The notes beneath the pieces are model-generated. The model was not told the DNA's origin. It did no database searches and saw only the letters and a list, made by a program, of their open reading frames with translations. This document shows, piece after piece, positions 24,455 to 64,000 of a stretch of 64,000 bases of DNA (positions are counted from its first letter, which is position 1; every line of letters begins with the position of its first letter). The translations under genes were made by a program, and so were the position numbers. This DNA is from Thermodesulfobacteriota bacterium. Its GTDB lineage: Bacteria; Desulfobacterota; SM23-61. The stretch spans positions 24,534-88,533 of the forward strand of contig JBNAWB010000001.1 of NCBI GenBank assembly GCA_049699975.1, read 5' to 3'.

Positions 24455-24940
24455 ATGGCTATGAAGTATATACCTTTGGAAATGTGGTTCTTAATTATAG
24501 GAGCAAGCATCCTTATTTCTTCTTTGATAACCATTATTTGTTATAAAAAAATTTCTAACCTAATTTGGGCCCAAAGGATTAAAAATAAAAATCTCTGGAG
24601 CAAAAATTTCTTACCCATTATCGAAGAGTTGAAAAGCGTGCTTAAAGAAGCCGAAGACTTCTCCCACAATTTTTCCAGATTCTTAGAAGAAAGAAATAAA
24701 CTTTTCCATTCTTCGGCCTGCGGAAAAGAATTAGATAATAGCCAAAAGGAATTTGTAGCGCAGAGGCCAGATAATATGAAGACTTATTCCCCGGCCGCAA
24801 ATAGCTTAAGGCAAAAAACTATCCATATTTGCCAACTCGCTTCGGCCGGATGGGCAGTTGCTGATATCGCTTGGCAACTTGGCCTCTCTCGAGAAGAAGT
24901 GCAGTTGATATTAAATCTTTCCCAGAAGGCCACTAATTAG
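24455..24940 (+). CDS. Membrane-anchored protein with C-terminal helix-turn-helix (unknown function; possibly DUF2802-like flagellar-locus protein)
   Basis: N-terminal TM helix (FLIIGASILISSLITIICY) and a C-terminal HTH-like segment (ICQLASAGWAVADIAWQLGLSREEVQLILNL). Confidence 0.5.
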   Translation: MAMKYIPLEMWFLIIGASILISSLITIICYKKISNLIWAQRIKNKNLWSKNFLPIIEELKSVLKEAEDFSHNFSRFLEERNKLFHSSACGKELDNSQKEFVAQRPDNMKTYSPAANSLRQKTIHICQLASAGWAVADIAWQLGLSREEVQLILNLSQKATN

Positions 24941-25154
24941 ATTTTTGGCCTCTCTTCCCTCTCTTAGAAGAGCCTCCTAATCATGGAAATTTTTAGGCAA
25001 AAAATTCCCGCCGTTCATTAAGGGGGAATTTTTTTCCGCCTATTTTTCCAGCGATGGTCGCAGGAGGGAAAAATCTTATTAAAAAATAATAATGATTTTC
25101 ATAAATTAGAAGGTTTAAGGCGTGAAAACTAAAAAACATCTATAAGAAAGACCG

Positions 25155-25170
25155 GGCATACCGTTTGCAA
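25155..25170 (+). promoter_or_regulatory. Sigma-54 promoter: gGGCATaccgtTTGCA
   Basis: Correct GG-N10-GC geometry, about 30 nt upstream of flgF. Confidence 0.6.
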
Positions 25171-25202
25171 ATTTATGAATAAGCAAACTGGGAGGTAGAG
25201 TT

Positions 25203-25913
25203 TTGAAGAGTGTATATACAATAGGCGCAAATGCTTTGTTGAGGCAAGAAAAAAGATTTGCCCTCATCGCCAATAATCTAAGTAATGCCCATACCATAGG
25301 GTTCAAAAAGGAAACCCCTTCTTTTAAAGAGATTATAGGGCAGGCCTGGGGTGGAAAATTCGAAAAAGAAGTAATCGAAGATTACCAAATTAGTTTTCGC
25401 CAAGGAGATTTGCAAGTTACTAATAATGATCTCGACTTGGCTATAGAAGGGGAAGGTTTTTTTAAAATTAAAACTCCCCAGGGTATGCGTTACACGCGCA
25501 ACGGTCAGTTCCGTTTGGATAGAGATCAGAAATTAGTACAGGCAGATGGCTTTCCCGTAATGGGTAGGAGAGGAGAAATTTATATAAAAGGCGGAAAGGT
25601 AAGGGTCGAGGCGAATGGGTTGATCAAAGTGGATAACCAAGAAGTGGATCAATTGGCCATAGTGACCTTCGCTAATTTAAAAACTCTCCAGAAAGAAGGA
25701 CAAAATTTATTCCAACTGTCTTCGCCTCAAGAAGAGAGGGAGGCGGACAAGGCAGTTATTCATCAAGGTTTTGTAGAAACGGCCAATGTTAATGTAATCG
25801 AAGAGATGATTGCCCTTATCGATACTCATCGAAATTTTGAAGCATATACGCGCCTGCTGCAAGCCAATGATGAATTGGACGCCAAAGCAGCAAATGATTT
25901 AGGAAAAGTATAA
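25203..25913 (+). CDS. flgF: Flagellar basal-body rod protein FlgF
   Basis: Rod-family N- and C-terminal motifs. TTG start with a GGGAGG Shine-Dalgarno. Confidence 0.85.
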   Translation: MKSVYTIGANALLRQEKRFALIANNLSNAHTIGFKKETPSFKEIIGQAWGGKFEKEVIEDYQISFRQGDLQVTNNDLDLAIEGEGFFKIKTPQGMRYTRNGQFRLDRDQKLVQADGFPVMGRRGEIYIKGGKVRVEANGLIKVDNQEVDQLAIVTFANLKTLQKEGQNLFQLSSPQEEREADKAVIHQGFVETANVNVIEEMIALIDTHRNFEAYTRLLQANDELDAKAANDLGKV

Positions 25914-25927
25914 AAGGAGGGAAAATT

Positions 25928-26710
25928 ATGCTCCGTGGTCTTTGGACAGCCGCCACAGGAATGGCTTGTCAACAAACAAATTTGGCCTCTATAGCCAATA
26001 ATTTAGCCAATGTTAATACTAACGGCTTTAAGAAGAGTCGGGTAAATTTTCAGGATTTGATGTATCAAAATCTACGCACGCCAGGATCAACCACTTCGTC
26101 TGGAGGGCAATTGCCCGCCGGCATTCAAATCGGCATGGGAGCGAAAGTAGTGGCGGTGGAAAAAGTTTTTACCCAAGGAGATTACACTCAGACTAAGAAC
26201 CAATTAGATATGGCTATAGAAGGGAAAGGCTTCTTCAAATTAATGAGCATGGGGAGAGAAGTCTATACGCGCTCGGGAGCTTTTAAATTAGACAAGGACG
26301 GTTACATCTGCGATAGCAATGGTAATCGTCTCCAACCAGAATTTGCGGTTCCGGCCAAAACAGCTACGATAACTATAGAGCCTGGTGGAAAAATAGTTTG
26401 CGCAGGCTCAGATGGCAAAGAGTTAGGAAGCGTGCAGATTCAACTTTTCAATTTCCCCAACCCGGCAGGTCTCCAATCTATTGGCCATAATTTATTTGTT
26501 CCCTCCGATGCTTCTGGGGAAGCCGTCCAAGGAAATCCAGGATCCGATGAATTTGGGACCATTCTCCAAGGATTTTTAGAAATGTCTAACGTGGATGTGG
26601 TGGAAGAAATGATTAATATGATCATGACCCAAAGGGCCTATGAAATCAGTTCGAAAGTAATCCAGGCCGGAGATGATATGTTGCATATGGCCTCCAATTT
26701 GCGGAGATAA
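25928..26710 (+). CDS. flgG: Flagellar distal rod protein FlgG
   Basis: Motifs LWTAATGMACQQTNLASIANNLANVNTNGFK and MTQRAYEISSKVIQAGDDML. Confidence 0.9.
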   Translation: MLRGLWTAATGMACQQTNLASIANNLANVNTNGFKKSRVNFQDLMYQNLRTPGSTTSSGGQLPAGIQIGMGAKVVAVEKVFTQGDYTQTKNQLDMAIEGKGFFKLMSMGREVYTRSGAFKLDKDGYICDSNGNRLQPEFAVPAKTATITIEPGGKIVCAGSDGKELGSVQIQLFNFPNPAGLQSIGHNLFVPSDASGEAVQGNPGSDEFGTILQGFLEMSNVDVVEEMINMIMTQRAYEISSKVIQAGDDMLHMASNLRR

Positions 26711-26717
26711 GCTTAAA

Positions 26718-27464
26718 ATGGTTAGGTCTAAGATTTTAAAAATATATCTGATATTAATTCTTTATTCAGCAATCCTGATTTACTCTTTAGCTCACTCTGA
26801 AACAAAGGCCGACCTCCAAAACGGTTATATCATCGAAGCAGAAAGAGTGATGCGGATTTTAGAAGATTTTTTAAAGACTAACTTGGAAAAACAAAATCGC
26901 TCAGTCAAAATAAGCGAGATTCGCGGTTTTAAAAAAATTTTCCTACCCGAAGGAGTTCTATCCTGGGAAATAAAACTTCCTGATAGATTCTTCCAGGGGG
27001 GCGGTATTCCAGTTACTTTAACCTTCTATATAAATGGTCGCAAAGTTCAAGAGGTTCATTTTCAAGCTCAAGTTGAGATTTATGCCTGGGTAGTGGTGGC
27101 TAAAAATTATTTGCCCAAGCATCAGCTCATTAAAGAAAGCGATGTTCATCTTGTTTATCGGAATATTACCAAATATCCGGCCGATGTTCTTACGGAGACT
27201 AAAGAAGTTATAGGGAAAAGAGCGAGTCTCCATATAAATGCTTGGGAAGTTTTGCGCAAATCTATGGTGGAAGTGCCCCCCTTAGTGAAAAAAGGCGACT
27301 ATGTAACGCTCTTGGCCGAAAATGAGGGCTTTCGGATTACGGCTATAGGGGAAGTGAAGGAAGAAGGGCGTCAAGGTGAAATAGTGAAGGTTTTAAATAT
27401 TTCCAGCAAAAAAGAGATATTTGGCCGAGTTTTGGACAGTCAGACGGTGCAGGTAGATTTTTAG
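26718..27464 (+). CDS. flgA: Flagellar P-ring assembly chaperone FlgA
   Basis: Signal peptide, C-terminal SAF-like domain, and context between flgG and flgH. Confidence 0.7.
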   Translation: MVRSKILKIYLILILYSAILIYSLAHSETKADLQNGYIIEAERVMRILEDFLKTNLEKQNRSVKISEIRGFKKIFLPEGVLSWEIKLPDRFFQGGGIPVTLTFYINGRKVQEVHFQAQVEIYAWVVVAKNYLPKHQLIKESDVHLVYRNITKYPADVLTETKEVIGKRASLHINAWEVLRKSMVEVPPLVKKGDYVTLLAENEGFRITAIGEVKEEGRQGEIVKVLNISSKKEIFGRVLDSQTVQVDF

Positions 27465-27472
27465 GAGGGAAA

Positions 27473-28168
27473 ATGCCTAAATATATAGCCCAAAGATATT
27501 GCTTATTAATATTCTTCTTGATTTTGGGGGGCTTGGGGGGGTGTATGATGAAACCATCGCCCACCTGGAAATCTTCCCCTGCGCAATTAAAACCTATATC
27601 TCCTCTTCCTTCGCCACCGGCGCCCATAAGTGAAGGTTCTTTGTATTCTCCCCAGATGGGGGTAAATTGGTACACTGATCTAAAAGCCAGAAACGTCGGG
27701 GATATAGTAACCATAAACATTGTGGAATCAGCGAAAGCCTCCAAGAATGCTTCCACCAAGACTTCCCGCAATTCCGAATTTGGAGCGAGTTGGAGCGGCG
27801 TCCTATCTAAATTGAGTGGTAATTGGTTTGGTGATGAACATAAAGCTTCTTTTGATAATGAATTTGAAGGGAAAGGTGAGACTACCCGTAGTTCCCAATT
27901 AAACGCTTATATTACCGCCCAAGTAATCCAGGTCTTGCCCAATGGGAATTTAGTAATTCAAGGATCGCGCGAAGTGCGGGTTAATAACGAAAATCAATAT
28001 ATTAATATTCAAGGAATAGTTCGTCCGGAAGATATTTCGGCCAATAATATAGTCCTTTCTACCTTTATCGCCGAGGCCAAGATTGAACTTACGGGCCAAG
28101 GAGTTATTGCCGATAAGCAAAGGGCCGGGTGGTTTACCAGAATCTTAGATTGGATCTGGCCATTTTAA
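27473..28168 (+). CDS. flgH: Flagellar L-ring lipoprotein FlgH
   Basis: Lipobox LGGLGGC and a conserved FlgH core (NVGDIVTINIVESAKASK...). Confidence 0.9.
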   Translation: MPKYIAQRYCLLIFFLILGGLGGCMMKPSPTWKSSPAQLKPISPLPSPPAPISEGSLYSPQMGVNWYTDLKARNVGDIVTINIVESAKASKNASTKTSRNSEFGASWSGVLSKLSGNWFGDEHKASFDNEFEGKGETTRSSQLNAYITAQVIQVLPNGNLVIQGSREVRVNNENQYINIQGIVRPEDISANNIVLSTFIAEAKIELTGQGVIADKQRAGWFTRILDWIWPF

Positions 28169-28194
28169 ATAGTTATAAAAGAGGAAGAAGAGCA

Positions 28195-29382
28195 ATGAAA
28201 AAGGGCTTTTTCCAAATTTTATGTTTGTTCATGATTCTTGCAATTTTTTCCTCCCCTTCCTGGGGAGCGCGTTTGAAGGATATTGCTACTTTTAAAGGAA
28301 TTCGGAATAACCAATTAATCGGTTATGGGTTAGTAGTGGGCCTCAATGGCACGGGGGACAGTCCGAATGCCGAGTTTACCATCCGTTCGATCAGCAATAT
28401 GTTAGAAAGGATGGGCGTCCATATTCCCCAAGAGCGGCTCAGTCAAATCAGATTGAAAAATGTAGCCGCGGTAATAGTAACCGCATCTTTGCCTCCTTTT
28501 TCTAAAGTGGGAAATAAGATTGATGTGCATGTTTCTTCTCTGGCTGATGCTACTTCCTTAGCTGGGGGCACTCTTCTTTTAACCCCCCTCATTGGCCCTG
28601 ATAAACAGGTATATGCCTTAGCCCAAGGACCCATCGCCATAGGTGGCTTTGCTTTTTCTGGAGCTTCAGGCAGTGGTGTGCAGAAAAATCATCCCACAGT
28701 GGGTATCATTACCCGCGGGGCAGTGATTGAGAGAGAAGTACCCGTTTCTTTAAACGGGAAAAAGGAGCTTTTTCTTACGCTCTTCAATCCCGATTTTACT
28801 ACTGCCGAAAAAGTTAAAGAGGCGATCAATCATCTTTTAGGATTGAGCTATGCTTCTTGTGTTGATTCGGGAACTATTCAGATAGATGTACCTTATTCCT
28901 ATCAGCAACGAATTCCCCAATTGATCTCTTTATTGGAGCAGATTGAAGTAACTCCAGATACCGTAGCGAAAGTGATCATAAATGAAAGAACGGGCACCCT
29001 TGTTTTGGGAGAGAAAGTGCGCATTTCTACCGTGGCCGTGGCCCACGGAAATTTAAATATCCAAATAAAAGAGAAATTGCACGTCTCGCAACCCAATCCT
29101 TTTGCTCCCCCAGCTCCGCCGGGTACCCCAACTACGGTTGTTCCTCCTCGGGAAGGCACAGGTACTATTGTTACTCCGGGATCAGCTACAGTTGTTACGC
29201 CGGAATCAACCATAGGGGTGAAAGAAGAAAGAAAAGGATTAGTAGTTTTATCTGAAGGGGTAGATTTAGGAGAGTTAGTGAGAGCACTCAATGCATTAGG
29301 AGTAACTCCTCGGGATTTAATAACAATTTTGCAGAGTATTAAGGCCGCGGGAGCCTTGCAAGCAGAGCTGGAAATCCATTAG
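28195..29382 (+). CDS. flgI: Flagellar P-ring protein FlgI (with proline/threonine-rich tandem-repeat insertion near C-terminus)
   Basis: Signal peptide and FlgI core (RLKDIATFKGIRNNQLIGYGLVVGLNGTGD). An insertion of about 40 aa (PPAPPGTPTTVVPP...TIVTPGS ATVVTPES) lies within nt ~29095-29225. Confidence 0.9.
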   Translation: MKKGFFQILCLFMILAIFSSPSWGARLKDIATFKGIRNNQLIGYGLVVGLNGTGDSPNAEFTIRSISNMLERMGVHIPQERLSQIRLKNVAAVIVTASLPPFSKVGNKIDVHVSSLADATSLAGGTLLLTPLIGPDKQVYALAQGPIAIGGFAFSGASGSGVQKNHPTVGIITRGAVIEREVPVSLNGKKELFLTLFNPDFTTAEKVKEAINHLLGLSYASCVDSGTIQIDVPYSYQQRIPQLISLLEQIEVTPDTVAKVIINERTGTLVLGEKVRISTVAVAHGNLNIQIKEKLHVSQPNPFAPPAPPGTPTTVVPPREGTGTIVTPGSATVVTPESTIGVKEERKGLVVLSEGVDLGELVRALNALGVTPRDLITILQSIKAAGALQAELEIH

Positions 29383-29401
29383 AAATTTAAAGTTTAAGAA
29401 A

Positions 29402-29848
29402 ATGGAAAAAGGGCCGATACAAAATGTAAAAAATTTACCCAATCTCCTTTCCCCTATGGACAATTTTAATAAAGGGAAATTGGATGAAGAAAGAGCTAAA
29501 AAAGTTTGTCGAGAATTTGAATCCTTATTTTGGAAAGAAATCTTCAAATTGATGCGGAAAATGACCTGGGGAAAAGGATGGGGGAACAATAGCGAGTCAG
29601 GAAATGAAATATACCAAACCCTTTTAGAGCAAGAAGTGAGTAGAACCCTGGCTCAGAAAAAAGGATTAGGGATAGGAGAGCTAATTTATAAACAGATTAC
29701 CAATCAGCAAAAAAATAAAAGTAACCTTTCACTCTCCCCTCTTCCCAGCGGGGAGAGCCCCTTACCTTCTCCGCTCCTTAGTGGGGAGAGCCCCTCACCT
29801 TCTCCTCTCCCCATTGGGGAGAGGCAAGGTGAGGGGGAATTAAAATGA
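29402..29848 (+). CDS. flgJ: Flagellar rod-binding protein (FlgJ N-terminal domain only; no muramidase domain), with repeat-encoded C-terminal tail
   Basis: Rod-binding motif FESLFWKEIFKLMRK...GNEIYQTLLEQEVSRTLAQKKGLGIGELIY. The C-terminal 40 aa (SPLPSGESPLPSP... x3) are encoded by tandem hairpin repeats at 29732-29842. Confidence 0.75.
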   Translation: MEKGPIQNVKNLPNLLSPMDNFNKGKLDEERAKKVCREFESLFWKEIFKLMRKMTWGKGWGNNSESGNEIYQTLLEQEVSRTLAQKKGLGIGELIYKQITNQQKNKSNLSLSPLPSGESPLPSPLLSGESPSPSPLPIGERQGEGELK

Positions 29849-29897
29849 ACACTTGCTTGAGGCTTTGCCTAAAGAAATTAGGCGCGGAGAATAGGCA

Positions 29898-30386
29898 ATG
29901 GAAGAATCTACCGGGCAATTTAAGGATTTAGAAGAGTTAATGGTTGAAGAAATCCGTCAATATAACTTATTAATTGAAAAGATCAAAGAAGAAGGGCAAT
30001 ATTTGCGACAAAATTCTGTGGAACTTCTGCTTAAATCTATTAGCCAAATTGATAAACAAAGAGAAATTTTAGTGAAAATAAATGAAACCCTGAGGAAAGA
30101 ATTGAAAAGGGCAGCTAATTCATCTGAACTTAAAGAAGAAATTTTGGCTCACGCTCTGCCACTCCCAATTTACCATAAATGGCAGAGGCACCAAAAAGAA
30201 GTGGCCCACTTAAAGGAAAGAGTCCATAAATTAAATTTACAGAATAAGGCATTCATCCAAGAAATTCTTGCTTACTGGAGAGAATTAATGGATTTGATCG
30301 CTTCTTCCGGTAGTAACCTTTCATACCATTGGGTTAAGGGTAATAATCCAAAAACAAATCCATTCTTCTTAAATCAGCGAGTGTAA
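29898..30386 (+). CDS. flgN: Probable FlgN-family export chaperone for FlgK/FlgL
   Basis: About 160 aa, helical and charged, immediately upstream of flgK. Confidence 0.5.
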   Translation: MEESTGQFKDLEELMVEEIRQYNLLIEKIKEEGQYLRQNSVELLLKSISQIDKQREILVKINETLRKELKRAANSSELKEEILAHALPLPIYHKWQRHQKEVAHLKERVHKLNLQNKAFIQEILAYWRELMDLIASSGSNLSYHWVKGNNPKTNPFFLNQRV

Positions 30387-30388
30387 GA

Positions 30389-31840
30389 ATGTCTGGAGTT
30401 AGCGGAGTATTCAATATAGCTAAAGGTGCTTTGCAGGCTCAATTGGTCGCTATGCAAGTGGCCAGTCATAACTTAGCCAATGTAAATACCCCTGGGTATA
30501 CGCGCCAAATAGCCTTATTAGAAACCCAACCCTCAGCTTCCACAGGCCGGTTGAATTTAGGCCTGGGAGTGACCGTGCAATCTATAACCCAAGCAGTAGA
30601 TATTTATACTACGCAGACTATCCATAAAAACATTGCTGACCTTTCCGAGAGTGATACCAAAGCTTCTATATTGAATTATATTGAGAGTCTTTTTAATGAT
30701 ACTTCGGGCACGGGTCTTGCTCAGGCGTTGAGTGAGTTTTGGAATGCCTGGCATGACTTGGCTAATAATCCGAGCGGGATTGGCGAGCGCACTTCCCTTT
30801 TGGGAAAAGCCGAAAACCTTTGTAGCTTTTTCCATTCCTTAAGAAACAATTTAAGCCAAATTATGGAGCAAGCAAATGCCAGTATTGCTATCGCCCTCCA
30901 GGAAGTGAATGTGATCACCTCCCAAATTGCCAAATTAAATGGGAAAATTTTGGAAGCCGAATCTGCCGGAGCTGTGGCCAATGATTTACGTGACCAAAGG
31001 AATATTTTGTTAGAAAAATTATCAGACTACTTAGGCAATGTATATTTGGAAGATGAAAATGGGGGCTTGAAAATTTGGGTGGGTCAGGGCATAAGATTGG
31101 TTGACGGCCTTGAGTATTGGGAATTAGAAAGCAATGACGGAAAAATATTTTGGAATGATATTCCCGTAGATATTAGTAAAAGGTTGATCGGTGGCAAGAT
31201 CGGAGGTTGGTTAGATATTCGAGATGAAATAGTTCCTCAGTATATGGCCAACCTTGATGAATTAGCCGGCACGCTCATCGCCCAGGTGAATACGCTGCAT
31301 TTTACAGGCTACACCCTGGAGGGAGAAACAGGAAAATATTTTTTCAAAGATTTCCAAACTGCTCCGGAGTTGCCCAATTCCTCGGATTATACCAATGCGG
31401 CAGCTTATATACAATTGAGTACGGATGTCCTTGGTAATCCGCGGAATATCGCCGCCGGAGGAAGCACAGGTGATCCAGGAGATAATGAAAATGCTTTAAA
31501 AATATTAAATATCCAGAATGATGATACTAACTCCATTACCAAATGGGTTTATAACCAACGGGGAGATTCCCGCACGAGCATTTCCCTGAACGTTACTTTA
31601 GATCATTATTACCATAACCTCACCGGCGAAATAGGGCTTTTGACTGAGCAAATGCAACAAAAGCAGGAATTTATGCAGACATTTTTAGATCAATTAAGAA
31701 CAGTGCGTGATTCAGTCTCCGGGGTAAACGTAGATGAAGAATTGGTGGAAGTAATGAAAATTCAGCGGGGTTTTGAAGCGGCCTCAAAATTAATAGCAGT
31801 TGCCGATCAAATGTTGCAAAGTTTATTGGAGATCAGATAA
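30389..31840 (+). CDS. flgK: Flagellar hook-associated protein 1 FlgK
   Basis: Rod-family N- and C-termini (ALQAQLVAMQVASHNLANVNTPGYTRQ) and HAP1 size. Confidence 0.9.
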   Translation: MSGVSGVFNIAKGALQAQLVAMQVASHNLANVNTPGYTRQIALLETQPSASTGRLNLGLGVTVQSITQAVDIYTTQTIHKNIADLSESDTKASILNYIESLFNDTSGTGLAQALSEFWNAWHDLANNPSGIGERTSLLGKAENLCSFFHSLRNNLSQIMEQANASIAIALQEVNVITSQIAKLNGKILEAESAGAVANDLRDQRNILLEKLSDYLGNVYLEDENGGLKIWVGQGIRLVDGLEYWELESNDGKIFWNDIPVDISKRLIGGKIGGWLDIRDEIVPQYMANLDELAGTLIAQVNTLHFTGYTLEGETGKYFFKDFQTAPELPNSSDYTNAAAYIQLSTDVLGNPRNIAAGGSTGDPGDNENALKILNIQNDDTNSITKWVYNQRGDSRTSISLNVTLDHYYHNLTGEIGLLTEQMQQKQEFMQTFLDQLRTVRDSVSGVNVDEELVEVMKIQRGFEAASKLIAVADQMLQSLLEIR

Positions 31841-31843
31841 AAA

Positions 31844-32725
31844 ATGCGCGTAGCTACCAGGACTATATACTATAACTTGGAAAAGAAACTCCTTTCCTTG
31901 GAAGAAAAACAGCAAAAGATAAATGAACAGATAGCTTCAGGAAAGATCCTCAATAAACCATCAGATAATCCGCTGGCCATGATCAATGTTCTCCACTTGA
32001 AGAAGGCATGGGCGCAGGTGCAACAATACCAGCGGAATATGGAAACGACCAAAACTTGGCTAAATTTAACAGAATCGGCGCTGCAGCAGACGGAAGAATT
32101 GATCGGCCGGGCTAAAGAAATTGCTACCCAAATGGCTAGTGATACCCAAAATGCCGCGACTAGAGCTTTGGCGGCTAAAGAAATAGATCAACTTATAGAT
32201 CAGGCAATTTCTTTGGCTAATAGCGAGTTAGGGGGAAAATATATTTTTGCAGGTTATAAGGTTAATACTGTTCCTTTTTCCAAGGTGAGCGGATCCGTTC
32301 AATATAACGGCGATACTAATACAATTCAAATTCCCATTGGCCAAGAGGAAACTTTGGCAATCAATAAAGATGGGCAGACCGCCTTTATGGAGGCTGATAT
32401 TTTTACTGTATTAGGGAGTCTCAAAACTGCGCTGGAAAATAATCAGACAGCAGAAATTCGGCAGCAGTTAGAAAATCTCCAAGAGGTCGCGGATCATTTC
32501 AATAATCAAATAGTTGATATTGGGTCCCGACTGAACCGCTTGGAAGCCAAACAAAATATTCTTAAAGACCTGGATCTTTTCTTTCAAGAGAGAATCTCAG
32601 AAGAAGAGGATGCGGATATTTCCGCTTTAGTTGTGGATTTAAAGGCGAAAGAATTGGCTTATCAGGCGGCCCTGCTCTCTTCAGCAAAAATCCATGAGTT
32701 AACTTTATTAAATTATTTGCGTTAA
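31844..32725 (+). CDS. flgL: Flagellar hook-associated protein 3 FlgL
   Basis: Flagellin-like N-terminus with the typical FlgL motifs, and appropriate size. Confidence 0.85.
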   Translation: MRVATRTIYYNLEKKLLSLEEKQQKINEQIASGKILNKPSDNPLAMINVLHLKKAWAQVQQYQRNMETTKTWLNLTESALQQTEELIGRAKEIATQMASDTQNAATRALAAKEIDQLIDQAISLANSELGGKYIFAGYKVNTVPFSKVSGSVQYNGDTNTIQIPIGQEETLAINKDGQTAFMEADIFTVLGSLKTALENNQTAEIRQQLENLQEVADHFNNQIVDIGSRLNRLEAKQNILKDLDLFFQERISEEEDADISALVVDLKAKELAYQAALLSSAKIHELTLLNYLR

Positions 32726-32728
32726 ATT

Positions 32729-32853
32729 ATTAATGAGCGCATTAAATAAATGACATATGCTGTTCTTAACCCCTTATCCTAACCCTCTCGCCAGGCATGG
32801 GGAGAGGGGAAGGTAAGGGGAATAAGTGTAAATATTTAATCGCTCCGAGTAAT
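32729..32853. mobile_element. MITE-like repeat, copy 1 (imperfect 21-bp terminal inverted repeats tattaatgagcgcattaaata / tatttaatcgctccgagtaata; internal ctctcgcc...ggggagagggg hairpin)
   Basis: Near-identical to 62075-62221 over both arms. Located between flgL and csrA. Confidence 0.7.
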
Positions 32854-32888
32854 AAATAGAGCAGTCATTTTTGCCAGGGAGGGTGAAA

Positions 32889-33110
32889 ATGCTGATTTTA
32901 ACTAGGAAGATAGGCGAATGCATCGTCATCGGGGACAAGATCAAGGTCTATGTAATAGATGTCCGCGGTAAGCAAGTGCGCTTAGGTATTGAGGCCCCGG
33001 TTGAAAATGTTATTTATCGGGAGGAGATTTTCCAGAAGGTCATAGAGGAAAACAAATTAGCCGCCGAGGCAGTTCAATACCACTTCTCGAAGATTAAAGA
33101 AAAGGAGTAA
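32889..33110 (+). CDS. csrA: Carbon storage regulator CsrA
   Basis: MLILTRKIGE.I.IGD.I.V.V..V.G.QVRLGIEAP...I.REEI, with a GGGAGGG Shine-Dalgarno. Confidence 0.9.
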   Translation: MLILTRKIGECIVIGDKIKVYVIDVRGKQVRLGIEAPVENVIYREEIFQKVIEENKLAAEAVQYHFSKIKEKE

Positions 33111-33118
33111 GAGATAAA

Positions 33119-33553
33119 TTGAGAGTCACCACTTCTCGTTTTGGAACGATAGACATTGAGGAAAAACAGGTTATTCGCATGCCGGAAGGCATGATTGGTT
33201 TTCCTGATTTTCGAAACTATGTTCTCTTAGAGCATAAAAAAGAATCTCCTTTTTGGTGGTGGCAGTGTCTAGATGCACCTTCTTTGGCTTTTGTCCTTAC
33301 AGATCCTTTGCTCTTCAAACCAGATTATGAAGTACAAATAAGTCCGGAAGATGAAGAAATATTGCAGGTTAAAGAGGCGGCAGGAAACTTGAAAACTTTA
33401 GTCGTCGTTAATATATCGCGAGACACTCCACCCATCATTACTGCTAATCTCCTTGGCCCATTGGTAATCAATGTGGCTAAGAGACTCGCCCGCCAAATTA
33501 TTCAATTCCAGAATTCTTATTCCCACCGTTTTCCCCTTCCCTTAAGGTTATAA
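33119..33553 (+). CDS. fliW: Flagellar assembly factor FliW (CsrA antagonist)
   Basis: FliW family (FGTIDIEE..VIRMPEGMIGFPD...YVLL). TTG start. Confidence 0.85.
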   Translation: MRVTTSRFGTIDIEEKQVIRMPEGMIGFPDFRNYVLLEHKKESPFWWWQCLDAPSLAFVLTDPLLFKPDYEVQISPEDEEILQVKEAAGNLKTLVVVNISRDTPPIITANLLGPLVINVAKRLARQIIQFQNSYSHRFPLPLRL

Positions 33554-33582
33554 GGGAGGTCAGGCAAGTCCGCAGGGCGTGG

Positions 33583-33648
33583 CCATCTCTTTAATTTCAA
33601 TGAGTTACGAGATCGCCGCGGTCTGCATGCTCCCTCGCGATGACCTTA
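33583..33648 (+). repeat. GC-rich structured intergenic repeat, family 2, copy A
   Basis: About 85% identical to the reverse complement of 50180-50250. Contains the palindromic core gctccctcgcga. Confidence 0.6.
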
Positions 33649-43594: not shown

Positions 43595-43629
43595 GGGGAA
43601 GGGGAGTTTACTCCTTCCCCTCTTTTCTA
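43595..43629 (+). terminator. Rho-independent terminator after flagellin
   Basis: Stem ggggaaggggag / ctccttcccc with loop ttta, followed by tcttttct. Confidence 0.7.
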
Positions 43630-43645
43630 TTAAAGGAGGGGTGAA

Positions 43646-44008: not shown

Positions 44009-44111
44009 TATTCATATATAAATTCTCCTCACTCTTTCCCCTGGTCGAGTATTGGCGACTCTCCCCAGGGGAAAGAAGGTAAAATGAACAGATTAATTTG
44101 GAGGAAAATAA

Positions 44112-46478
44112 ATGGCCGGAACCAGTATGGTCAGCGGCTTGGCAAGCGGCCTGGATTGGCAAAAAATCATTGAACAGTTAAGAGCAGTAGAGCATAAAAG
44201 AATTGATCTTATTGAAAGCAGAAAGAAAACATACACGGACAAACTCAGTGCCTGGCAAGCAATAAATACTAAACTCCTATCTTTAAAAACCACGGCCGGA
44301 AAACTCAATAAACCTGCGTATTTTAATCTTTATACTGTTTCCCTTTCTTCAAATACTACTACCGACGCTGAGGACATCCTCTCCGCCACGACCACGACAA
44401 GTGCTGCCCCTGGTTCTTACCAAATCAAAGTAAATTCTTTGGCCAGCGCGCAAAAGCTTTCCTCGACGAGCTTTGCCAGCCAGACGGCAGCTCTGAATCT
44501 TTCTGGAGACATAATCATTGGCGGGCGAACGGTTTCCATCTCTACCACGGATAGCTTATCCTCTATCCGCCATAAAATCAACGCGGTTAATTCGGGTGCT
44601 AATGCTTCGCAAGTGACGGCCTCGATCGTTAATTATGGAAATGAAGGCTATAGATTAATCTTGACTAGTGATGAAGAAGGATCAGCAGGAATAAGCCTCC
44701 TTAATGGCGGAGCAACGGACCTGCTTGGTTTGCTCGGGTTCGTTGATGCGGCGGAGAAAACAGCGAAAAATATAATAGCCGCGGGACACAAGAGTGATGC
44801 CTTTTCTGAGGCAGATGAGGCCATCGGAGGTGCCAATCTTCTTAATTTAACTTCTCCCCAAAGTGGGGAAGTGACCATAGTTATTAATGGAATTTCCAGG
44901 TCTGTAGCGATTGATTTAGCCACGGATTCATTGAATACCATAAGAGAAGCCATTAATAATGCTTTCAACGGAGTATTTACCTCAAATCCAGCTTCGGTAA
45001 TAAGTGAAACAGCTGAAGATGGGAATACTTTTTATAGGCTTTTAATTGAAGGAAGTACAATCGCTTATACCGATACCAATAATATTTTAGAAACTCTTGG
45101 CATCTTAAAAAGAGGCGGCGTTTCCGATGAAAAGGGTGTTACGGGCGACATCCAGAACACTATCGGCGGGGTTTATATCACCTCAGCAACTTTAATAAAA
45201 GATATCGATGGTTATAACGATTATGCGGTGGGAGATACCATTGAATTAACTGGTACAGACACATCAGGCAATGCGGTTAGTTATTCTTTTGTTATCAATG
45301 ATACCACTACTGTGGGAGAATTGCTGACCGCTATTGAAAATCAATATGGGTATGTTACTGCTCAAGTAACCGCCGATGGGAAAATCAGAGTGTTGGATAA
45401 TGAGCTTGGGGATACAGATCTATCTGTAATTCTTACTCCCAGCAAATCCACTATTAAATTTGATAGCGATTATGATTTAGGGGCCTTAAGTACGATAAGA
45501 GCCAGGCAGATTCAGGCCGGGGCAAATGCCAGTATTACCATTGATGGAGTGGAGGTCACAGCCAGCTCCAATATGGTCGATGATGTAATTCCTGGGGTAA
45601 CGTTGAATTTGAAAAAGGCGGCCAGCGATACCACCGTTACCCTCAATATTAATAGAGATTATGCTGCCGTAAAGGAGAAAATCGAGGAGTTCGTAAATGC
45701 CTATAATGAGGCTATAGAAGCCATCAATAGTCATTTAAGATACAATGAGACAACTAAGGAGCCAGGAGGAATATTATTTGGAGACAATACTTTAAAGACG
45801 ATAAAATCAAGTCTTACCCAGATTATTTTGAATAGAATTGCAGGAGTATCAGATAATTTTTCTACCCTTGGTCAATTCGGTATTAGACTTAGCAACGATG
45901 GCAAACTGAGCATTGAAGAAGATACATTAAATGATTATTTAGCAAGCAATTTCGATGACCTAAAAAGGCTTTTTGTGGCCGATTGGTCAGCGACAAATAG
46001 TAATTTAACTTATATTTATCACACGATTGACACTCAGGCAGGGACATACAATATCCAAATAACAGGCATTGATCCTGTTACTGGTTACTTCGAGACTGAA
46101 GGAGATGCTCAGGGAGAGGGCGAGTATCTGCGCGGAATCTCGGGAAATGCCAAGGGGCTGGTTCTTCGTTACTCTGGCACAGCTACAGGAGATATAGGTA
46201 GTTTTACATTAACTTATGGAGTAGCGGAGTTGCTCGACCGAGCGCTTTATTACATTACAGATTCTGTTAGCGGAACAATTGCTAATAAAGAGCAGACTAT
46301 TCAAGAAACAATCTCCAGTTTGGCCGATGATATATCAGAAATGGAAGATCGTCTCGATCGAAAAATGGCCGACTTGGAACGGAAATTTATTGCTATGGAG
46401 ACTGCTTTAAGCACCTTGCAGAGTCAGATCAGTTGGCTATCGAGCCAAATTGAAACAATTAATAAAGGATGGGGATAA
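44112..46478 (+). CDS. fliD: Flagellar filament cap protein FliD (HAP2), large 788 aa form
   Basis: FliD N-terminus (GLASGLDWQKIIEQL...LSAWQAINTKL) and the C-terminal coiled-coil FliD domain. Confidence 0.85.
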   Translation: MAGTSMVSGLASGLDWQKIIEQLRAVEHKRIDLIESRKKTYTDKLSAWQAINTKLLSLKTTAGKLNKPAYFNLYTVSLSSNTTTDAEDILSATTTTSAAPGSYQIKVNSLASAQKLSSTSFASQTAALNLSGDIIIGGRTVSISTTDSLSSIRHKINAVNSGANASQVTASIVNYGNEGYRLILTSDEEGSAGISLLNGGATDLLGLLGFVDAAEKTAKNIIAAGHKSDAFSEADEAIGGANLLNLTSPQSGEVTIVINGISRSVAIDLATDSLNTIREAINNAFNGVFTSNPASVISETAEDGNTFYRLLIEGSTIAYTDTNNILETLGILKRGGVSDEKGVTGDIQNTIGGVYITSATLIKDIDGYNDYAVGDTIELTGTDTSGNAVSYSFVINDTTTVGELLTAIENQYGYVTAQVTADGKIRVLDNELGDTDLSVILTPSKSTIKFDSDYDLGALSTIRARQIQAGANASITIDGVEVTASSNMVDDVIPGVTLNLKKAASDTTVTLNINRDYAAVKEKIEEFVNAYNEAIEAINSHLRYNETTKEPGGILFGDNTLKTIKSSLTQIILNRIAGVSDNFSTLGQFGIRLSNDGKLSIEEDTLNDYLASNFDDLKRLFVADWSATNSNLTYIYHTIDTQAGTYNIQITGIDPVTGYFETEGDAQGEGEYLRGISGNAKGLVLRYSGTATGDIGSFTLTYGVAELLDRALYYITDSVSGTIANKEQTIQETISSLADDISEMEDRLDRKMADLERKFIAMETALSTLQSQISWLSSQIETINKGWG

Positions 46479-54257: not shown

Positions 54258-55884
54258 ATGTGGGCTAAATTAAAGCTTTCCACAAAGATTTTGCTATTAG
54301 GAGTCGTTATTATATGCTGTTTCTCCTTAGTCTTTGCTTGGCTGATACCAAAAGTTAGAAGCAATATGTACGAGGCTAAGTATCAGAAAACAAAACATAT
54401 TGTTGAATCTGCCTGGGGTGTATTAGACCATTACGCCAAGCAAGCAAAGGCAAAAGTGCTTTCCGAGGAGGAAGCAAAAAGACAAGCTAAAGAAGTCATT
54501 AAGAATCTGCGTTATGACCAAGATGATTATTTCTGGATTAACGACTTAGAGCCAAGAATGGTTATGCACCCTTTTAAAAAGGAGATGGAGGGGCAGAGTT
54601 TATCAGATTATAAAGATCCTAACGGTAAAAAGTTATTTGTTGCTTTTGTAGAGGTTTGTAAGAAATCGGGTGAAGGTTTTGTGGATTATATGTGGCCCAA
54701 ACCTGGGGCCACTAAGCCCGACCCCAAAATTTCATATGTCAAATTACTCCCCGAATGGGGATGGATTATCGGTTCTGGAATTTATATTGATGATGTGGAA
54801 AAAGAAATAAATCAAATCCTTTATGTAATAATCGGCACAGTGATAGCTGTTACAATAGGGGGGCTTTTTTTGGCTTATTTAGTGGCCCGCTTTATTTCCC
54901 GATCTATTAATCGAGTTGCTCAGGGTCTAACAGAAGGTGCAGAGCAAGTGGCCTCGGCATCAGGCCAAGTTTCCTCAGCCAGTCAAATCTTGGCTGAAGG
55001 GGCATCAGAGCAAGCAGCCGGAATTCAAGAAACTTCTTCTTCCATTGAAGAAATGTCTTCTATGACGCGCAAAAATGCGGAAAATGCCAATCAAGCCAAT
55101 ATATTAGTGATGGAAACATCACGGGCTGTAGAAGAGGCCAATCAATCCATGAAAGAATTAACGCAGTCTATGAGTGAAATTTCCAGCGCCTCAGAAGAGA
55201 CAGGAAAGATTATTAAGACTATAGATGAAATTGCCTTTCAAACTAATTTATTGGCCTTGAATGCGGCGGTAGAAGCAGCTCGGGCTGGAGAAGCTGGTGC
55301 TGGTTTTGCAGTTGTGGCCGATGAGGTGCGCAATTTAGCCATGCGGGCAGCAGAAGCTGCTAAAAACACAGCTAATTTAATCGAGGGAACAGTTAAAAAG
55401 GTTCGTAATGGATCAGAAATTTTGGCGAAAACTAACTAAGTCTTTGCCAAAGGTGGCCAGCAGTTCAAAAAAGGTACAGGAGTTAGTTGGGGAAATTGCG
55501 GCCGCTTCCCAAGAACAGGCTCAGGGCATAGAACAAATTAATAAAGCAATTTCCGAGATGGATAAGGTAGTGCAAAAGAATGCGGCTTCTGCCGAAGAGT
55601 CTGCGGCGGCGGCAGAGGAGATGAATGCGCAAGCCGAAACAATGAAGGGGTTTGTATTTGAGCTTATGAATTTGATGAATGGGCAGAATGGAAATAGCCA
55701 AACGTCTTGGGAGTTGAAAAAAGTGACTCAGGGCGAAGGACCTCTTGGAAGTCAAGACCAGAAGGGTGGTAATGGAAAAAGAAAGGTGCGTTCTATAATC
55801 AGCTGCAAGAAAGGAGGGAGGCAAATAGAAGCAAAGAAACCAGAACAAATAATCCCCATGGAGGGAGATTTTAAAGAATTTTAA
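54258..55884 (+). pseudogene. Methyl-accepting chemotaxis protein (single-Cache sensor) disrupted by in-frame TAA (55437-55439) plus +1 frameshift (~55452)
   Basis: Two ORFs (54258-55439 and 55408-55884) together reconstruct a full MCP when aligned to the MCPs at 56479 and 62707. Expected ...KTNEVFAKVASSSKKV; observed KTN*VFAKGGQQ. Confidence 0.7.
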
Positions 55885-56478: not shown

Positions 56479-58086
56479 ATGAAGATTGGGCAATTAGTTA
56501 AGGACATGAAGCTTTCTAAAAAGTTGCTCATATCCCCCATGGTGGTAATAGTCTTTTTAATCCTCCTGGGCTGGGTCTCTTACCGAGGTTTAATTAGCCA
56601 AAAAGAAGCTATGGAAGATGTTTTTCAAAATCGCTTTAAGAATTATCAAATAAGTGCTGCTTTGGTGAATGATCTCGCCACTATGCATAGCAATTTATAT
56701 AAATTAATAAGTTGGGCTAATGCTAACTACGAAGAGAAAAAAATCCAAAGCCTCGGTAAAGAACAAATAAACATGTTGGAAAAAGCTGCGCGAGGAGTCA
56801 GCGAAGTGCAGTCAAAGAATGAACTCGCTCGGGAGGAAAAAGTTCTTTTGGGAACAATTGGAACTCAACTTGCGGAATATAAAAAAGTAGCCCTCTCCGC
56901 CATTGACCTAGCCACTTCAGATCTTAATATGGCTACTATGTACATGGGGAATGCTGATGATAAATACCAAGTATTATATAAAACCTTACAAGAACTTTTG
57001 GCTTTGGAAAACAAACTGAGCCAAGAAAGTTATATTTCTTCAATGGCAAGTTATTCCACAGCAGTAAGAATGTTTTTTATTATTATGGGAATTTCTTTAA
57101 TTATTTCCATAGGCATAAGCCTGCTCACTGCACGGAAAATTACTCATCCGCTTCACCAAGCCATGAAAGTTATCCATCAGATTGCTGAGGGGGATCTGAC
57201 TCGAGAACTTAAAGTAGAATCCCGGGATGAAGTCGGGGAATTAGCAAAATCTGTAGAAATGATGCGTCTCAAAATGAGCGAAGCAGTTGGCCAGTCAGTT
57301 TCCATGTCCCAGAGCCTTGCCGAAGCTGCCGCTGAGCAAGCAGCCTCCTTGGAGGAGACTTCTTCATCTTTAGAAGAGATGACTTCCATGACCAAACAGA
57401 ATGCCGGAAATGCCCATCAGGCTAATAGTTTGATGGATAATACCCAAGAAGTGATTAAGAAAGCAGATGGCTCTATGAGGCAATTAATTGCTTCTATGAG
57501 AGAAATCTCGACGGCGAGTGAGGAAACGGTAAAGATCATTAAAACTATTGATGAGATAGCTTTCCAGACGAATTTATTAGCTCTAAATGCGGCGGTAGAA
57601 GCAGCTCGGGCTGGAGAAGCTGGTGCTGGTTTTGCGGTAGTAGCTGATGAAGTACGCAACTTAGCGATGCGGGCCGCGGAAGCAGCCAAGAACACATCAG
57701 AGCTGATGGCTGATATTATGCGTAAGATTAAGAATGGAGAGAAGCTGGTTAATGTAACCGCTGAAGGATTTAGAGAACTCACAGATAGTTCTTCTAAGGT
57801 GGTTGGTTTAATTCAGGAGATTGCTGCTGCTTCCCAAGAGCAAGCCCAAGGGATTGAGCAAATAAACAAGGCGGTCACTGAGATGAATAATCTAACCCAA
57901 AAGAATGCGGCGGCCGCCGAGGAGTTGGCTTCCCTTATGGCCATATTCAAGACCAACGGTTCTGGAGGAAAAAGTACAGGAGCTATTTCTGTATCCCCAA
58001 AGGCAGATTTTATGGATCACATTTCGCCAAAAAGATTATCCGAAGACAAAGTGATCTCTCCCAACCTAACCGAAGCCCAAATTTAA
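56479..58086 (+). CDS. Methyl-accepting chemotaxis protein (4HB-type periplasmic sensor, HAMP, MA domain)
   Basis: TM1, a helical periplasmic domain, TM2, HAMP, and a conserved signalling domain ([37 protein letters not shown]). Confidence 0.9.
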
Positions 58087-62044: not shown

Positions 62045-62074
62045 GAAGCAAATCTGCTGGCCAGGCTAAGCGAT

Positions 62075-62221
62075 ATTAATGAGTGCATTAAATAAATGAC
62101 ATCTGCTGTTCTTAACCTCTCACCTCGGTACGAGTCGATTCCGACCTAACCTTCTCCCCACGCATGGGGAGAGGGGAGGATGAGGGGAATGATTGTAAAT
62201 ATTTAATCGCTCGGAGTAATA
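62075..62221. mobile_element. MITE-like repeat, copy 2
   Basis: Same TIRs and internal ggggagagggg hairpin as 32729-32853, with a longer internal segment. Confidence 0.7.
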
Positions 62222-62706: not shown

Positions 62707-64000
62707 ATGGTCAAAAAAATTTTTAGATTAGATACTATTAATAAGAAGTTCATGATTCCAACCTTAATGTTAGTTGTAATTTTGCTCTTGGGGTTAGGAA
62801 CGATTTTGGTTATGAACCATTATTTTTCTACAAAATCTTTAATGGAATCAAAAGCGAATTTTTTATCAACTTTCCTTAAAGAAATTAGTACCCCTTATCT
62901 CAGTAATTATGACTATCGCCCGTTAGAAGGCTTTGTTCAAGAAGCGTGTAAAGACCCCGAGATAGCTTTCGTTATTTATTACGATGATCGGAATAATCCT
63001 GTAACAACGAGCGTAAAAGAGCCAACGGATACTTCTTCTTTACTGCTTTACAGACATGAGGTAAAAAACTCTGAGGGCAGGGTTGTGGGCTCTTTTAAGA
63101 TGGGTTATAAAAAAAATGTGCTTTCAGAAATTTTGCAAGGAGGAATATTTAGAATAGGTTTGAGCATCCTGATAGCTATGGGCATAATGGCCGTAGCGCT
63201 CACATTGCTTATCCGCAATATCGGCCGATCTTTAAAAGACATTTTTAAAGGTCTAAATGAGGGAATTGATCAAGTAGCATCAGCATCTGCTCAGATTTCT
63301 TCAGCCAGCCAATCTATGGCGGAGGCAACTTCAGAACAAGCAGCGGGAATTCAAGAGACTTCTTCTTCGCTTGAAGAGATGACTTCCATGACAAAGCAAA
63401 ATGCGGAGAGCGCTAATCAGGCAAACAATTTGATGATGCAGACAAGTAAGGTTGTAGAGGAAGCAAACCAAGCAATTAAGGAATTAATTCAATCAATGAA
63501 CGAGATTTCAAAGACTTCTGAAGAGATGGCCAAGATAATCAAGACTATCGACGAGATAGCTTTTCAGACTAACCTTTTGGCTCTTAATGCAGCCGTAGAG
63601 GCGGCACGAGCTGGAGAAGCGGGGGCTGGTTTTGCCGTGGTAGCTGATGAAGTAAGAAACTTGGCTATGCGCGCTGCGGAGGCGGCAAAGAATACAGCCA
63701 GCTTAATTGAAGAGTCGGTTAAGAAAATTAAAAATGGCTCTATCATTGTTACAAAGACCAATGAAGCATTCGAGAAGGTTTCTGTTAGTTCCAAGAAAGT
63801 GGCCGAGCTCATGGCTGAAATAACAGCAGCTTCTCAAGAACAGGCCCAAGGAATTGAGCAGATTAACAAAGCAGTAGCAGAGATGGATAAAGTAGTGCAG
63901 AGGAATGCGGCTTCGGCAGAGGAGTCAGCTTCGGCAGCGGAAGAGATGAATACACAGGCTGAAACAATGAAAGGTTTTGTAGAGGAATTAATGGCTTTAG
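62707..64000 (+). CDS. Methyl-accepting chemotaxis protein, 5' portion (continues beyond window end)
   Basis: AGGAGG Shine-Dalgarno, TM, a periplasmic domain, TM, HAMP, and an MA domain highly similar to the MCPs at 54258 and 56479. There is no stop before the window edge. Confidence 0.85.

Follow-up and report, generated by a model that had tools for sequence, protein, structure and literature searches.

How does a complete flagellar gene come to end in a row of GC-rich hairpins that lie inside its own reading frame? The question is raised by a 64-kb stretch of DNA (hereafter the window; 39% G+C) from a Thermodesulfobacteriota metagenome-assembled genome (MAG; assembly GCA_049699975.1, contig JBNAWB010000001.1), which carries a flagellar and chemotaxis gene cluster. 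Here, an open reading frame (ORF) at 29402-29848 on the + strand encodes a 148-aa, single-domain rod-binding protein of the FlgJ N-terminal type, and its last 43 codons run through a tandem array of palindromic units. A first-pass annotation of this DNA had regarded the units as the core of a MITE (miniature inverted-repeat transposable element), either recruited into the coding sequence or inserted over the gene's 3' end. Our comparison with related genomes led to another explanation, which we consider likely: the gene lost its stop codon in front of a palindrome of the BoxC/PIT/TM class that belonged to the spacer and expanded in place, and the tail is a tolerated by-product.

Anatomy of the hairpin array

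The array, taken in register, spans 29732-29836 and lies inside the ORF. Tandem Repeats Finder (TRF) places it at 29744-29823, with a period of 33 nt, 2.4 copies, 82% matches and a score of 118, and no other array of that period occurs in the window. Its G+C content is 64%, compared with 39% for the window as a whole. The 141-nt array region folds with an energy of -72.6 kcal/mol, whereas dinucleotide shuffles average -48.8 ± 4.0 kcal/mol (z = -5.95; none of 200 shuffles was equal). The sequence GGGGAGAG is found 10 times in the window, where 2.3 copies are expected, and half of these copies are within the array. Both TRF and the translation bear out the earlier description of a tandem hairpin repeat of about 33 nt in the C-terminal tail of the rod-binding ORF, and the frame is kept through it, the period being 33 nt and the array lying within the longest ORF of the gene.

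The three units differ in their folding. Unit 1 (29732-29757, +), the first and partial one, was delimited by folding and by alignment to relatives. It forms the hairpin CTCTCCCC-(10 nt)-GGGGAGAG, with a perfect 8-bp stem (-15.5 kcal/mol, z = -3.3), and in the alignment to the related loci L001 and L011 it corresponds to the left arm, the loop and the inner right arm of the single hairpin that these loci possess. Unit 2 (29758-29790, +) is a duplicated 33-nt segment, delimited by the TRF period, with the arrangement CCCCTTACCTTCTCCGCTCC-TTAGT-GGGGAGAG; it belongs to a 66-nt insertion relative to L001 and L011, and its own degenerate hairpin is no better than those of shuffles (z = -1.3). Unit 3 proper (29791-29823) and the outer right arm (29824-29836) together make up a complete 46-nt palindrome on the + strand, CCCCTCACCTT-CTCCTCTCCCC-ATT-GGGGAGAGG-CAA-GGTGAGGGG (29791-29836), which was detected by both folding and motif scan and has a 20-bp stem (-38.8 kcal/mol, z = -6.1). 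The statement that each unit is an inverted repeat is therefore correct for units 1 and 3 and fails for unit 2.

In a promoter and terminator scan of 29300-30000, neither strand showed a terminator-like site and the + strand lacked a promoter, and inspection of the spacer by eye revealed no convincing sigma-28 or sigma-54 promoter. The succession of stem-loop and U-run that defines an intrinsic terminator is missing, as GAATTAAAATGAAC comes after unit 3. Rfam yielded no match in the window at the gathering threshold and nothing relevant at that threshold in 17 loci bearing the motif described below; in E-value mode, the segment 29650-29900 gave only sub-threshold matches to generic, miRNA-like hairpins.

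A complete rod-binding gene with a displaced stop

Upstream of the array, the conserved core of the gene is complete (codons 1-105; 29402-29716, +), as delimited by Pfam and by the orthologues. The assignment to the rod-binding family rests on the PF10135 match in the 148-aa ORF, which covers residues 51-98 with 31.9 bits, above the gathering cutoff of 25.1 bits, and on the flagellar neighbourhood: the gene order is flgH-flgI-flgJ-flgN-flgK-flgL-csrA-fliW, with flgI (PF02119) on one side and flgN (PF05130; 29898-30386, +) on the other, flgN being the next gene downstream in L001-L011 as well. In the two MAGs that carry the gene, NCBI annotates it from an internal Met at residue 54 as a 95-aa protein (MGB9697798.1 and MGC8810614.1), a call that drops the N-terminal half of the rod-binding protein. 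This start is doubtful; the orthologues, every one of which begins with MEKGPIQ, place the true start at 29402.

The C-terminal extension comprises 43 codons (residues 106-148; 29717-29845, +) and reads KSNLSLSPLPSGESPLPSPLLSGESPSPSPLPIGERQGEGELK; it is specific to this lineage, no orthologue having it. Of the 43 residues, 10 are Ser, 9 Pro, 8 Leu, 5 Gly and 5 Glu. The first-pass annotation had described it as SPLPSGESPLP repeated three times; there are indeed three similar 11-residue units, but they are not identical (SPLPSGESPLP, SPLLSGESPSP and SPLPIGERQGE). Tryptic peptides within the tail are SNLSLSPLPSGESPLPSPLLSGESPSPSPLPIGER and QGEGELK. The stop in use is the TGA at 29846-29848 (+), 10 nt past the last paired base of unit 3. 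In an AlphaFold2 model of the 148-aa protein, residues 109-148 have predicted local distance difference test (pLDDT) values below 50 and no secondary structure, with an alignment that has no depth in this region, which makes the model weak evidence; the tail is probably a disordered appendage on a complete protein.

The position at which the orthologues end is occupied by a homopolymer of seven A residues (A7; 29709-29715, +), evident by direct reading and in the frame table. The conserved part of the ORF closes with CAG CAA AAA AAT AAA AGT AAC. With one more A, it would read CAG CAA AAA AAA TAA and the protein would end in ...QQKK after 105 residues, like the orthologues P0002 and P0007, which end in ...KQQKK and are 105 aa long. 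Two TAA triplets, 29716-29718 and 29722-29724 (+), lie in frame +2 with respect to the ORF. According to the frame table and to an alignment that took in L001, L011, L009, L010 and L008, these triplets (29716-29724) are probably what is left of the ancestral stop region, which reads aaaTGAaaagGTAAt in the relatives. All stops within 29716-29830 are in frame +2, frame +1 being open to 29841 and frame 0 to 29846. The 43-residue extension is thus accounted for by a one-base difference in the A-tract: two of the three frames are free of stops in the arms of the array, which consist of purines or pyrimidines only, and 33 is a multiple of three, so that the ORF continues for 43 codons. The generic motif is read in a different frame, GGGTGAGGG yielding TGA in the frame of the window.

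The hairpin belongs to the flgJ-flgN spacer of relatives

A search of 5.8 billion proteins recovered ten relatives of the rod-binding ORF. One of them, P0001, is the window's own protein as annotated by NCBI, which gives a Thermodesulfobacteriota MAG as its source; the remaining nine are orthologues from other species, with 71-82% identity over the aligned core and lengths of 96-119 aa, five of them being exactly 105 aa long. Their ends lie at about residue 105, at 100-107 aa for P0002-P0009. The flgJ core of the window can be aligned with these orthologues end to end, and the repeat is found only past residue 105. None of the nine carries the tail; the 119-aa P0005 possesses a short, different extension. 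Orthologues with the same tail but no relation to the intergenic repeats had been named in the first-pass annotation as the finding that would speak against a repeat recruited into coding sequence; the orthologues found lack it, so that the tail was added recently and consists of repeat DNA.

We fetched the loci encoding the orthologues and aligned the gene end and the flgJ-flgN spacer. In L001, L011, L009 and L010, the gene ends as ...aaaTGAaaa(a/g)gtaat..., and a single hairpin homologous to units 1 and 3 follows 15-25 nt further on, in an intergenic position; in L011 it reads TCACTTTTACCTCTCCTCAGCGGGGAAAGGCAAGGTGGGG. With respect to this hairpin, the window has a 66-nt insertion (2 x 33) between GGGGAGAG and GCAAGGTG, and the hairpins of the window and the relatives have in common the locus-specific left flank AAAAGTAAyCT..TCAC. 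Decayed remnants of the spacer hairpin are seen in L005 and L007, no spacer hairpin in L008, L132 and L133, and an unrelated 189-nt spacer with a called ORF of 55 aa in L006. The palindrome is therefore an old resident of this spacer that appears to have expanded in place in the lineage of the window. The idea that the gene's 3' end was overwritten by an inserted element finds no support in these observations, the core being intact to residue 105 and the spacer of the relatives already holding the hairpin.

The neighbourhood of the hairpin is variable. The length of the flgJ-flgN spacer ranges from 4 nt (L132, L133) to 189 nt (L006), and the C-terminus of the rod-binding protein varies in step with it, from 100 to 119 aa, whereas the flgI-flgJ, flgN-flgK and flgK-flgL junctions are nearly constant among the relatives. 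As judged from these sequences, the end of the rod-binding gene is evidently labile. In L005, which comes from another species, another assembler and an unrelated data set, the same cA7t leads to read-through into the decayed hairpin and a length of 119 aa. The FlgK and FlgN identities place the window nearest to the group of L001, L009, L010 and L011; because L005 falls outside the window and this group, stop loss of this kind has probably happened more than once.

At the RNA level, the hairpins of the orthologous loci differ in fold strength: that of L010 is strong (z = -3.8), those of L001, L009 and L005 are no better than shuffles, and no compensatory changes were seen among them. Because of this variable fold strength without compensatory changes, we claim no conserved RNA structure. 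A metagenome scan with the FlgJ core returned three loci only, one already known and two more distant ones without a spacer hairpin, and no repeat-number variants were present among them.

Agreement of two assemblies

The 90% cluster of P0001 has a second member, P0011 (MGC8810614.1), from assembly GCA_049969335.1. A 9025-bp contig of this assembly (L134) aligns to 24597-33621 of the window with 99.89% identity, 10 single-nucleotide polymorphisms (SNPs) and no indels. One of the SNPs is at 29707, directly before the A-run, and the contig is identical to the window in the A7 run, in the three units and in a MITE-like element at 32728. As a second MAG has the same A7 and array, a random assembly error at A7 appears unlikely. 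In addition, the window contains 68 other homopolymers (at least 7 A/T or at least 6 G/C) in intact ORFs, which gives no sign of systematic indel errors. The possibility raised earlier that the true stop lies upstream, hidden by a sequencing error, is right in one respect, as a stop is located one base out of frame, but the two assemblies agree on A7.

Unit 3 belongs to the BoxC/PIT/TM class

From the literature, the motif was identified as BoxC, also known as PIT or as the G/C-rich 'intrastrand triplex motif' (TM) of Escherichia coli, TM(ECO) (Holder et al. 2015, PMC4666352). It has also been described as a conserved G-quadruplex-hairpin motif (bioRxiv 10.1101/032615). In our own ITxF-style scan, a TM consists of a pyrimidine block, its Watson-Crick purine complement and a mirror purine block (G*G, A*A or T*A); stem length is restricted to 6-15 nt and loop length to 1-6 nt, and no more than one mismatch is allowed. 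Unit 3 obeys these rules on the + strand (29803-29836) and on the - strand (29791-29825), with a stem of 10 and one mismatch, and so does a core at 62150-62187, within the second of two MITE-like copies; units 1 and 2 do not. The window contains three G/C-rich TM matches, whereas 40 dinucleotide shuffles contain none. In a local alignment with the E. coli TM type A consensus CCCTCGCCCCTTTGGGGAGAGGGTTAGGGTGAGGGG, the score of unit 3 is 39, whereas shuffles reach 10.6 ± 2.0 (none of 2000 equal). The order of the blocks (pyrimidine, loop, purine, loop, mirror purine) is the same, and the alignment of CCTCTCCCC-ATT-GGGGAGAGG-CAA-GGTGAGGGG of unit 3 with CCCTCGCCCC-TTT-GGGGAGAGGG-TTA-GGGTGAGGGG of E. 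coli has 29 of 35 columns identical. By these sequence rules unit 3 is a member of the BoxC/PIT/TM class, the triplex itself being only predicted.

The motif class itself is known; what is new here is the host and the arrangement, which is both tandem and coding. Unlike TM(ECO), the flgJ element resides in a Thermodesulfobacteriota host with 39% G+C and has shortened G-tracts (GG for GGG); it is a full palindrome with an outer stem; and it is tandemly triplicated with a period of 33 nt. In E. coli, the motifs have been reported from intergenic positions only and show no association with mobile elements (PMC4666352), whereas the flgJ array is inside an ORF and a related core is found in a MITE-like element with inverted arms. 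The intergenic location is seen in L001, L009, L010 and L011, so that the likeness to E. coli extends to the ancestral site, which is surrounded by a spacer unusually variable among relatives. TM loci show raised local variability, mostly in the form of small intergenic deletions and changes (PMC4666352), and such an instability agrees with the hypervariability of the flgJ-flgN spacer and with 33-nt duplications in place.

The class is not confined to this clade. One genome per species was scanned with the core pattern TCTCCCC-N3-6-GGGGAGAGG-N2-3-RGRT-N-AGGGG, which was found in at least 119 stretches from many phyla; among the matches listed are Methylomirabilota, Planctomycetota, many Alphaproteobacteria, Acidobacteriota, Nitrospirota, Omnitrophota, Verrucomicrobiota, Chloroflexota and others. 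This breadth bears on the name 'MITE-core family' given in the first-pass annotation. The cores of the two MITE-like elements of the window do resemble unit 3 (Smith-Waterman scores of 34 and 40, compared with 11 ± 2 for shuffles; none of 2000 equal), and the MITE string quoted there is exact at 62150-62190, but the name is too narrow, as the E. coli consensus scores equally well (39).

Several side observations concern the same class. In other phyla, too, the motif is seen in short tandem arrangements (L015, L035, L053, L090 and L093), for example with third blocks repeated, as in GGGTGAGGGG-TTAGGTGGTGAGGGG..., or with entire units separated by about 100 nt, and the window is therefore not alone in showing tandem expansion. 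Within the window, an intergenic hairpin of related sequence (CTCTTTCCCCTGG...CCAGGGGAAAGAAGG) is located at 44031-44082, upstream of an ORF at 44112-46478, and an AT-richer sequence that follows the triplex-motif rules is located at 43607-43639 (-). In Reyranella, Asaia and other Alphaproteobacteria (L023, L029, L038, L070, L072, L089, L091, L124 and L126), the copies have the left flank tCATgttCC and are often found between divergent genes as two inverted copies separated by about 50 nt. On the opposite strand of these copies, the purine arm reads GGAGAGGAACATGA, which resembles a Shine-Dalgarno sequence followed by a start codon, and such hairpins may mask the adjacent gene's ribosome-binding site.

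MITE-like elements in the window

Two MITE-like copies were delimited from the repeat families D6 and D10, one in the flgL-csrA spacer (copy 1; 32728-32854, +) and one downstream of cheB (copy 2; 62074-62221, +). The element is 127-148 nt long and has AT-rich inverted outer arms around a GC-rich, TM-like central hairpin. The identity of the copies has sharp boundaries, with TA on either side of TTAATGAG...GAGTAA, and the copies differ by a 21-nt indel beside the core. Over its whole length, copy 1 folds as a hairpin with z = -7.7. The flgL-csrA spacer is 35 nt long in L001 and about 165 nt in the window, with TA on both sides, and the MITE-like arms are absent from the relatives' loci examined. 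Because the element at 32728 is absent from the flgL-csrA spacer of the relatives, it appears to be mobile. A MITE-like carrier of the TM motif may be new, since Holder et al. (2015) reported no link of TM motifs with mobile elements.

The array in flgJ lacks the features of such an element. In the window, the outer arms occur at 32728-32774 and 62074-62120 only, which does not support the earlier view of the array as a MITE insertion, and the flanks of the array (AAAAGTAACCTTTCA and TTAAAATGAACACTTGC) do not match them, so that terminal inverted repeats are missing. In place of an empty site, the relatives hold a homologous hairpin, and no direct repeat indicative of a target-site duplication flanks the array.

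Proposed origin of the tail and competing explanations

A GC-rich palindrome of the BoxC/PIT/TM class resides in the flgJ-flgN spacer of this clade of AT-rich Thermodesulfobacteriota. We propose the following for the lineage of the window. Replication slippage would have duplicated a 33-nt segment, composed of the left arm, the loop and the inner right arm, twice, and thereby converted one hairpin into an array of three units. An indel in the A-rich tract at the gene end, today cA7t, would have left the ancestral stops one base out of frame. In the frame now used, translation would meet no stop and run through the three units to the TGA at 29846, adding 43 residues rich in Ser, Pro, Leu, Gly and Glu, and the extended product would be a complete 105-aa rod-binding protein plus a probably disordered tail. 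Slippage as the cause of the 33-nt duplication would be in line with the instability of TM loci, and the tail would be tolerated as a by-product rather than be an adaptation. Ribosomes would have to unwind three hairpins, and a terminating ribosome would stand at 29846, 10 nt past unit 3. Liang, Rudd and Deutscher reportedly found in 2015 that repetitive extragenic palindromic (REP) sequences can reduce translation when near the stop codon. If the hairpin has a role at the RNA level, for instance as a transcript-level structure between flgJ and flgN, as the first-pass annotation had envisaged, or in blocking 3' exonucleases there, this role would be weakened in the lineage of the window. We regard the event as an ordinary kind of gene-end accident, not as a new mechanism.

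Four points weigh against this proposal. Both MAGs may derive from one study and one platform, in which case a platform-specific undercall of the homopolymer would be common to both. The order of the indels at the stop is beyond reconstruction, the relatives differing there from each other. By codon usage, the frame that is read looks more like coding sequence than the other two (0.25 bits per codon, compared with -0.07 and -0.33), which could hint at some selection on the tail; the score of this frame lies at the 36th percentile of real 43-codon windows, but the sample is small and repetitive and amounts to about 11-14 independent codons. Finally, the translated tail is a product predicted from the ORF.

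The first of these points leads to the explanation that the tail is an artefact. The real genome would then have A8, the protein would end in QQKK at 105 aa, and the array would be merely an intergenic tandem hairpin repeat. Homopolymers are a classic site of indel errors, A7 is one, and the added A would restore the length and the ending of the orthologues and bring the two TAA triplets into frame. We nevertheless consider an artefact unlikely, as A7 is common to two separately deposited MAGs that differ by 10 SNPs, as the 68 other long homopolymers lie in intact ORFs in a window about 90% of which is covered by 63 ORFs, and as the read-through at cA7t recurs in the unrelated data of L005. 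Another way to reconcile the A-tract with the length of the orthologues would be recoding, in which A_AAA_AAT (29710-29716) acts as a -1 slippery heptamer and the gene makes a 105-aa frameshift product in addition to the 148-aa standard product, as in dnaX. The heptamer is in phase, the -1 frame stops at once (TAA, 29716-29718), stable structure lies downstream, and the same heptamer exists in L005. At -1 frameshift sites, the stimulatory structure is usually 5-9 nt downstream, and AAT is a weak shifter in bacteria. In the window, however, the spacer to the first stem is 15 nt, the first hairpin has only 8 bp and AAT is the A-site codon, and the heptamer shows no sign of conservation, L001, L009, L010, L011 and L006 having plain stops without it. 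Recoding seems to us a highly improbable explanation.

If the tail is real and translated, it might also be adaptive, for example as a flexible Pro/Ser-rich linker that alters the contact of the rod cap with the peptidoglycan hydrolase or the rod. Two-domain FlgJ proteins do have a flexible linker after the rod-binding domain, the tail is identical in two strains, and its frame is the coding-like one mentioned above. The tail is absent in all other species, though, the two strains, at 0.1% divergence, are too similar for selection to be seen, the composition of the peptide is dictated by the palindrome, and the model predicts no structure for it; an adaptive tail therefore seems to us very unlikely. 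The remaining explanation is that flgJ received a transposed MITE, or the core of one, at its 3' end, and that this insert took the place of the gene end and brought its own frame. It draws on the likeness of unit 3 to the two MITE-like cores, including the GGGGAAT that follows them, and on the apparent mobility of an element that occupies the flgL-csrA spacer of the window and is missing from that of relatives. It is set against the lack of outer arms and of a flanking direct repeat, the completeness of the gene core to residue 105, and the presence in relatives of a hairpin at the same position that shares the locus-specific GCAAGGTG and left flank; moreover, unit 3 resembles the MITE cores no more closely than it does the E. 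coli BoxC/TM consensus. The missing arms, the intact core and the relatives' hairpin largely refute the insertion, which we hold to be highly improbable.

Precedents and in-frame palindromes elsewhere

The closest precedent for stop loss followed by read-through into a resident palindrome is found in Coxiella burnetii. In strain Dugway, an indel joins enhC to a copy of QMITE2, which supplies 33 C-terminal residues, whereas strain RSA 493 has a stop directly before QMITE2 at enhC (Wachter et al. 2018, PMC5896051). In both systems the stop just upstream of a palindromic repeat is lost through an indel, and a functional gene gains an element-encoded C-terminus. The repeat family and the host are different, the flgJ repeat is also tandemly expanded, and the extended FlgJ protein is a prediction only.

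Two further systems share some of these features. The Rickettsia palindromic elements (RPE) are palindromes tolerated and translated in frame within genes (review PMC10969869), and the translation of in-frame palindromic repeats within protein genes is the trait they have in common with flgJ. In contrast to the terminal read-through in flgJ, RPE are about 150 bp long and inserted inside ORFs. The REP sequences and bacterial interspersed mosaic elements (BIME) of enterobacteria are likewise short, GC-rich extragenic palindromes between the genes of operons. They can stabilise the upstream mRNA against 3' exonucleases, and mRNAs that contain REP are acted on by RNase R and PNPase (PMC12320835). 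Their consensus is a different one, however, and PIT/BoxC elements, when tested in E. coli, had neither promoter nor terminator activity, according to earlier PIT work cited in PMC4666352.

We also examined ORFs over the BoxC/PIT/TM motif in the lower-G+C loci of the core scan. In seven of these 18 loci, an ORF of at least 80 aa runs over the motif, and four of these ORFs have a Pfam match. In L048 (1285-1316), the full palindrome lies in the cytidylate kinase gene cmk, as a 13-aa insert relative to E. coli Cmk (1KDO). In L041 (581-612), the palindrome stands just past the GHTH motif of a metallophosphoesterase, as an 11-aa insert relative to 3RQZ. A frame-keeping insertion internal to a conserved domain, the mark of RPE, is thus found in L048 and L041 and is absent from flgJ. 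In L105 (352-383), the palindrome is in a mechanically called ORF, upstream of a short-chain dehydrogenase (SDR) match that begins right after it (aa 76-189) and covers the C-terminal half of the profile only; a second TM-like peptide is present further upstream. In L034 (5783-5814), the palindrome makes up a C-terminal tail after a complete DUF559 domain.

These cases, namely the tails of flgJ and L034, the internal copies of L048 and L041 and the possibly internal one of L105, come from a sample of the scan loci. They raise the possibility, which we put forward tentatively and at present hold to be somewhat doubtful, that the BoxC/PIT/TM palindrome is a mobile element that tolerates translation in the manner of RPE, rides MITE-like carriers, expands in tandem and is read in frame across unrelated, uncultivated phyla. 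As far as we found, such a general behaviour of this palindrome has not been described in the literature. If it were true, the palindrome would be a widespread source of new peptide segments, and not only a curiosity of non-B-DNA.

Annotators should regard the 43-residue tail as the outcome of a lineage-specific read-through into repeat DNA rather than as a portion of the FlgJ family. The locus illustrates, cleanly and in a datable way, that an unstable GC-rich palindrome beside an A-tract can add a peptide to a complete gene, and it extends the BoxC/PIT/TM class to AT-rich Thermodesulfobacteriota, to tandem arrays and to coding sequence. The in-frame palindromes in conserved enzymes bear on the nature and spread of these widely conserved motifs.

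Other repeats in the window

Elsewhere in the window, three diverged copies of a segment of about 600 nt (repeat families D1-D4; 69-79% identity) are located at 54993-55673, 57319-57925 and 63319-63998, with spacings of 2326 and 6000 nt. This part of the window encodes chemotaxis functions, and the copies probably represent paralogous genes.

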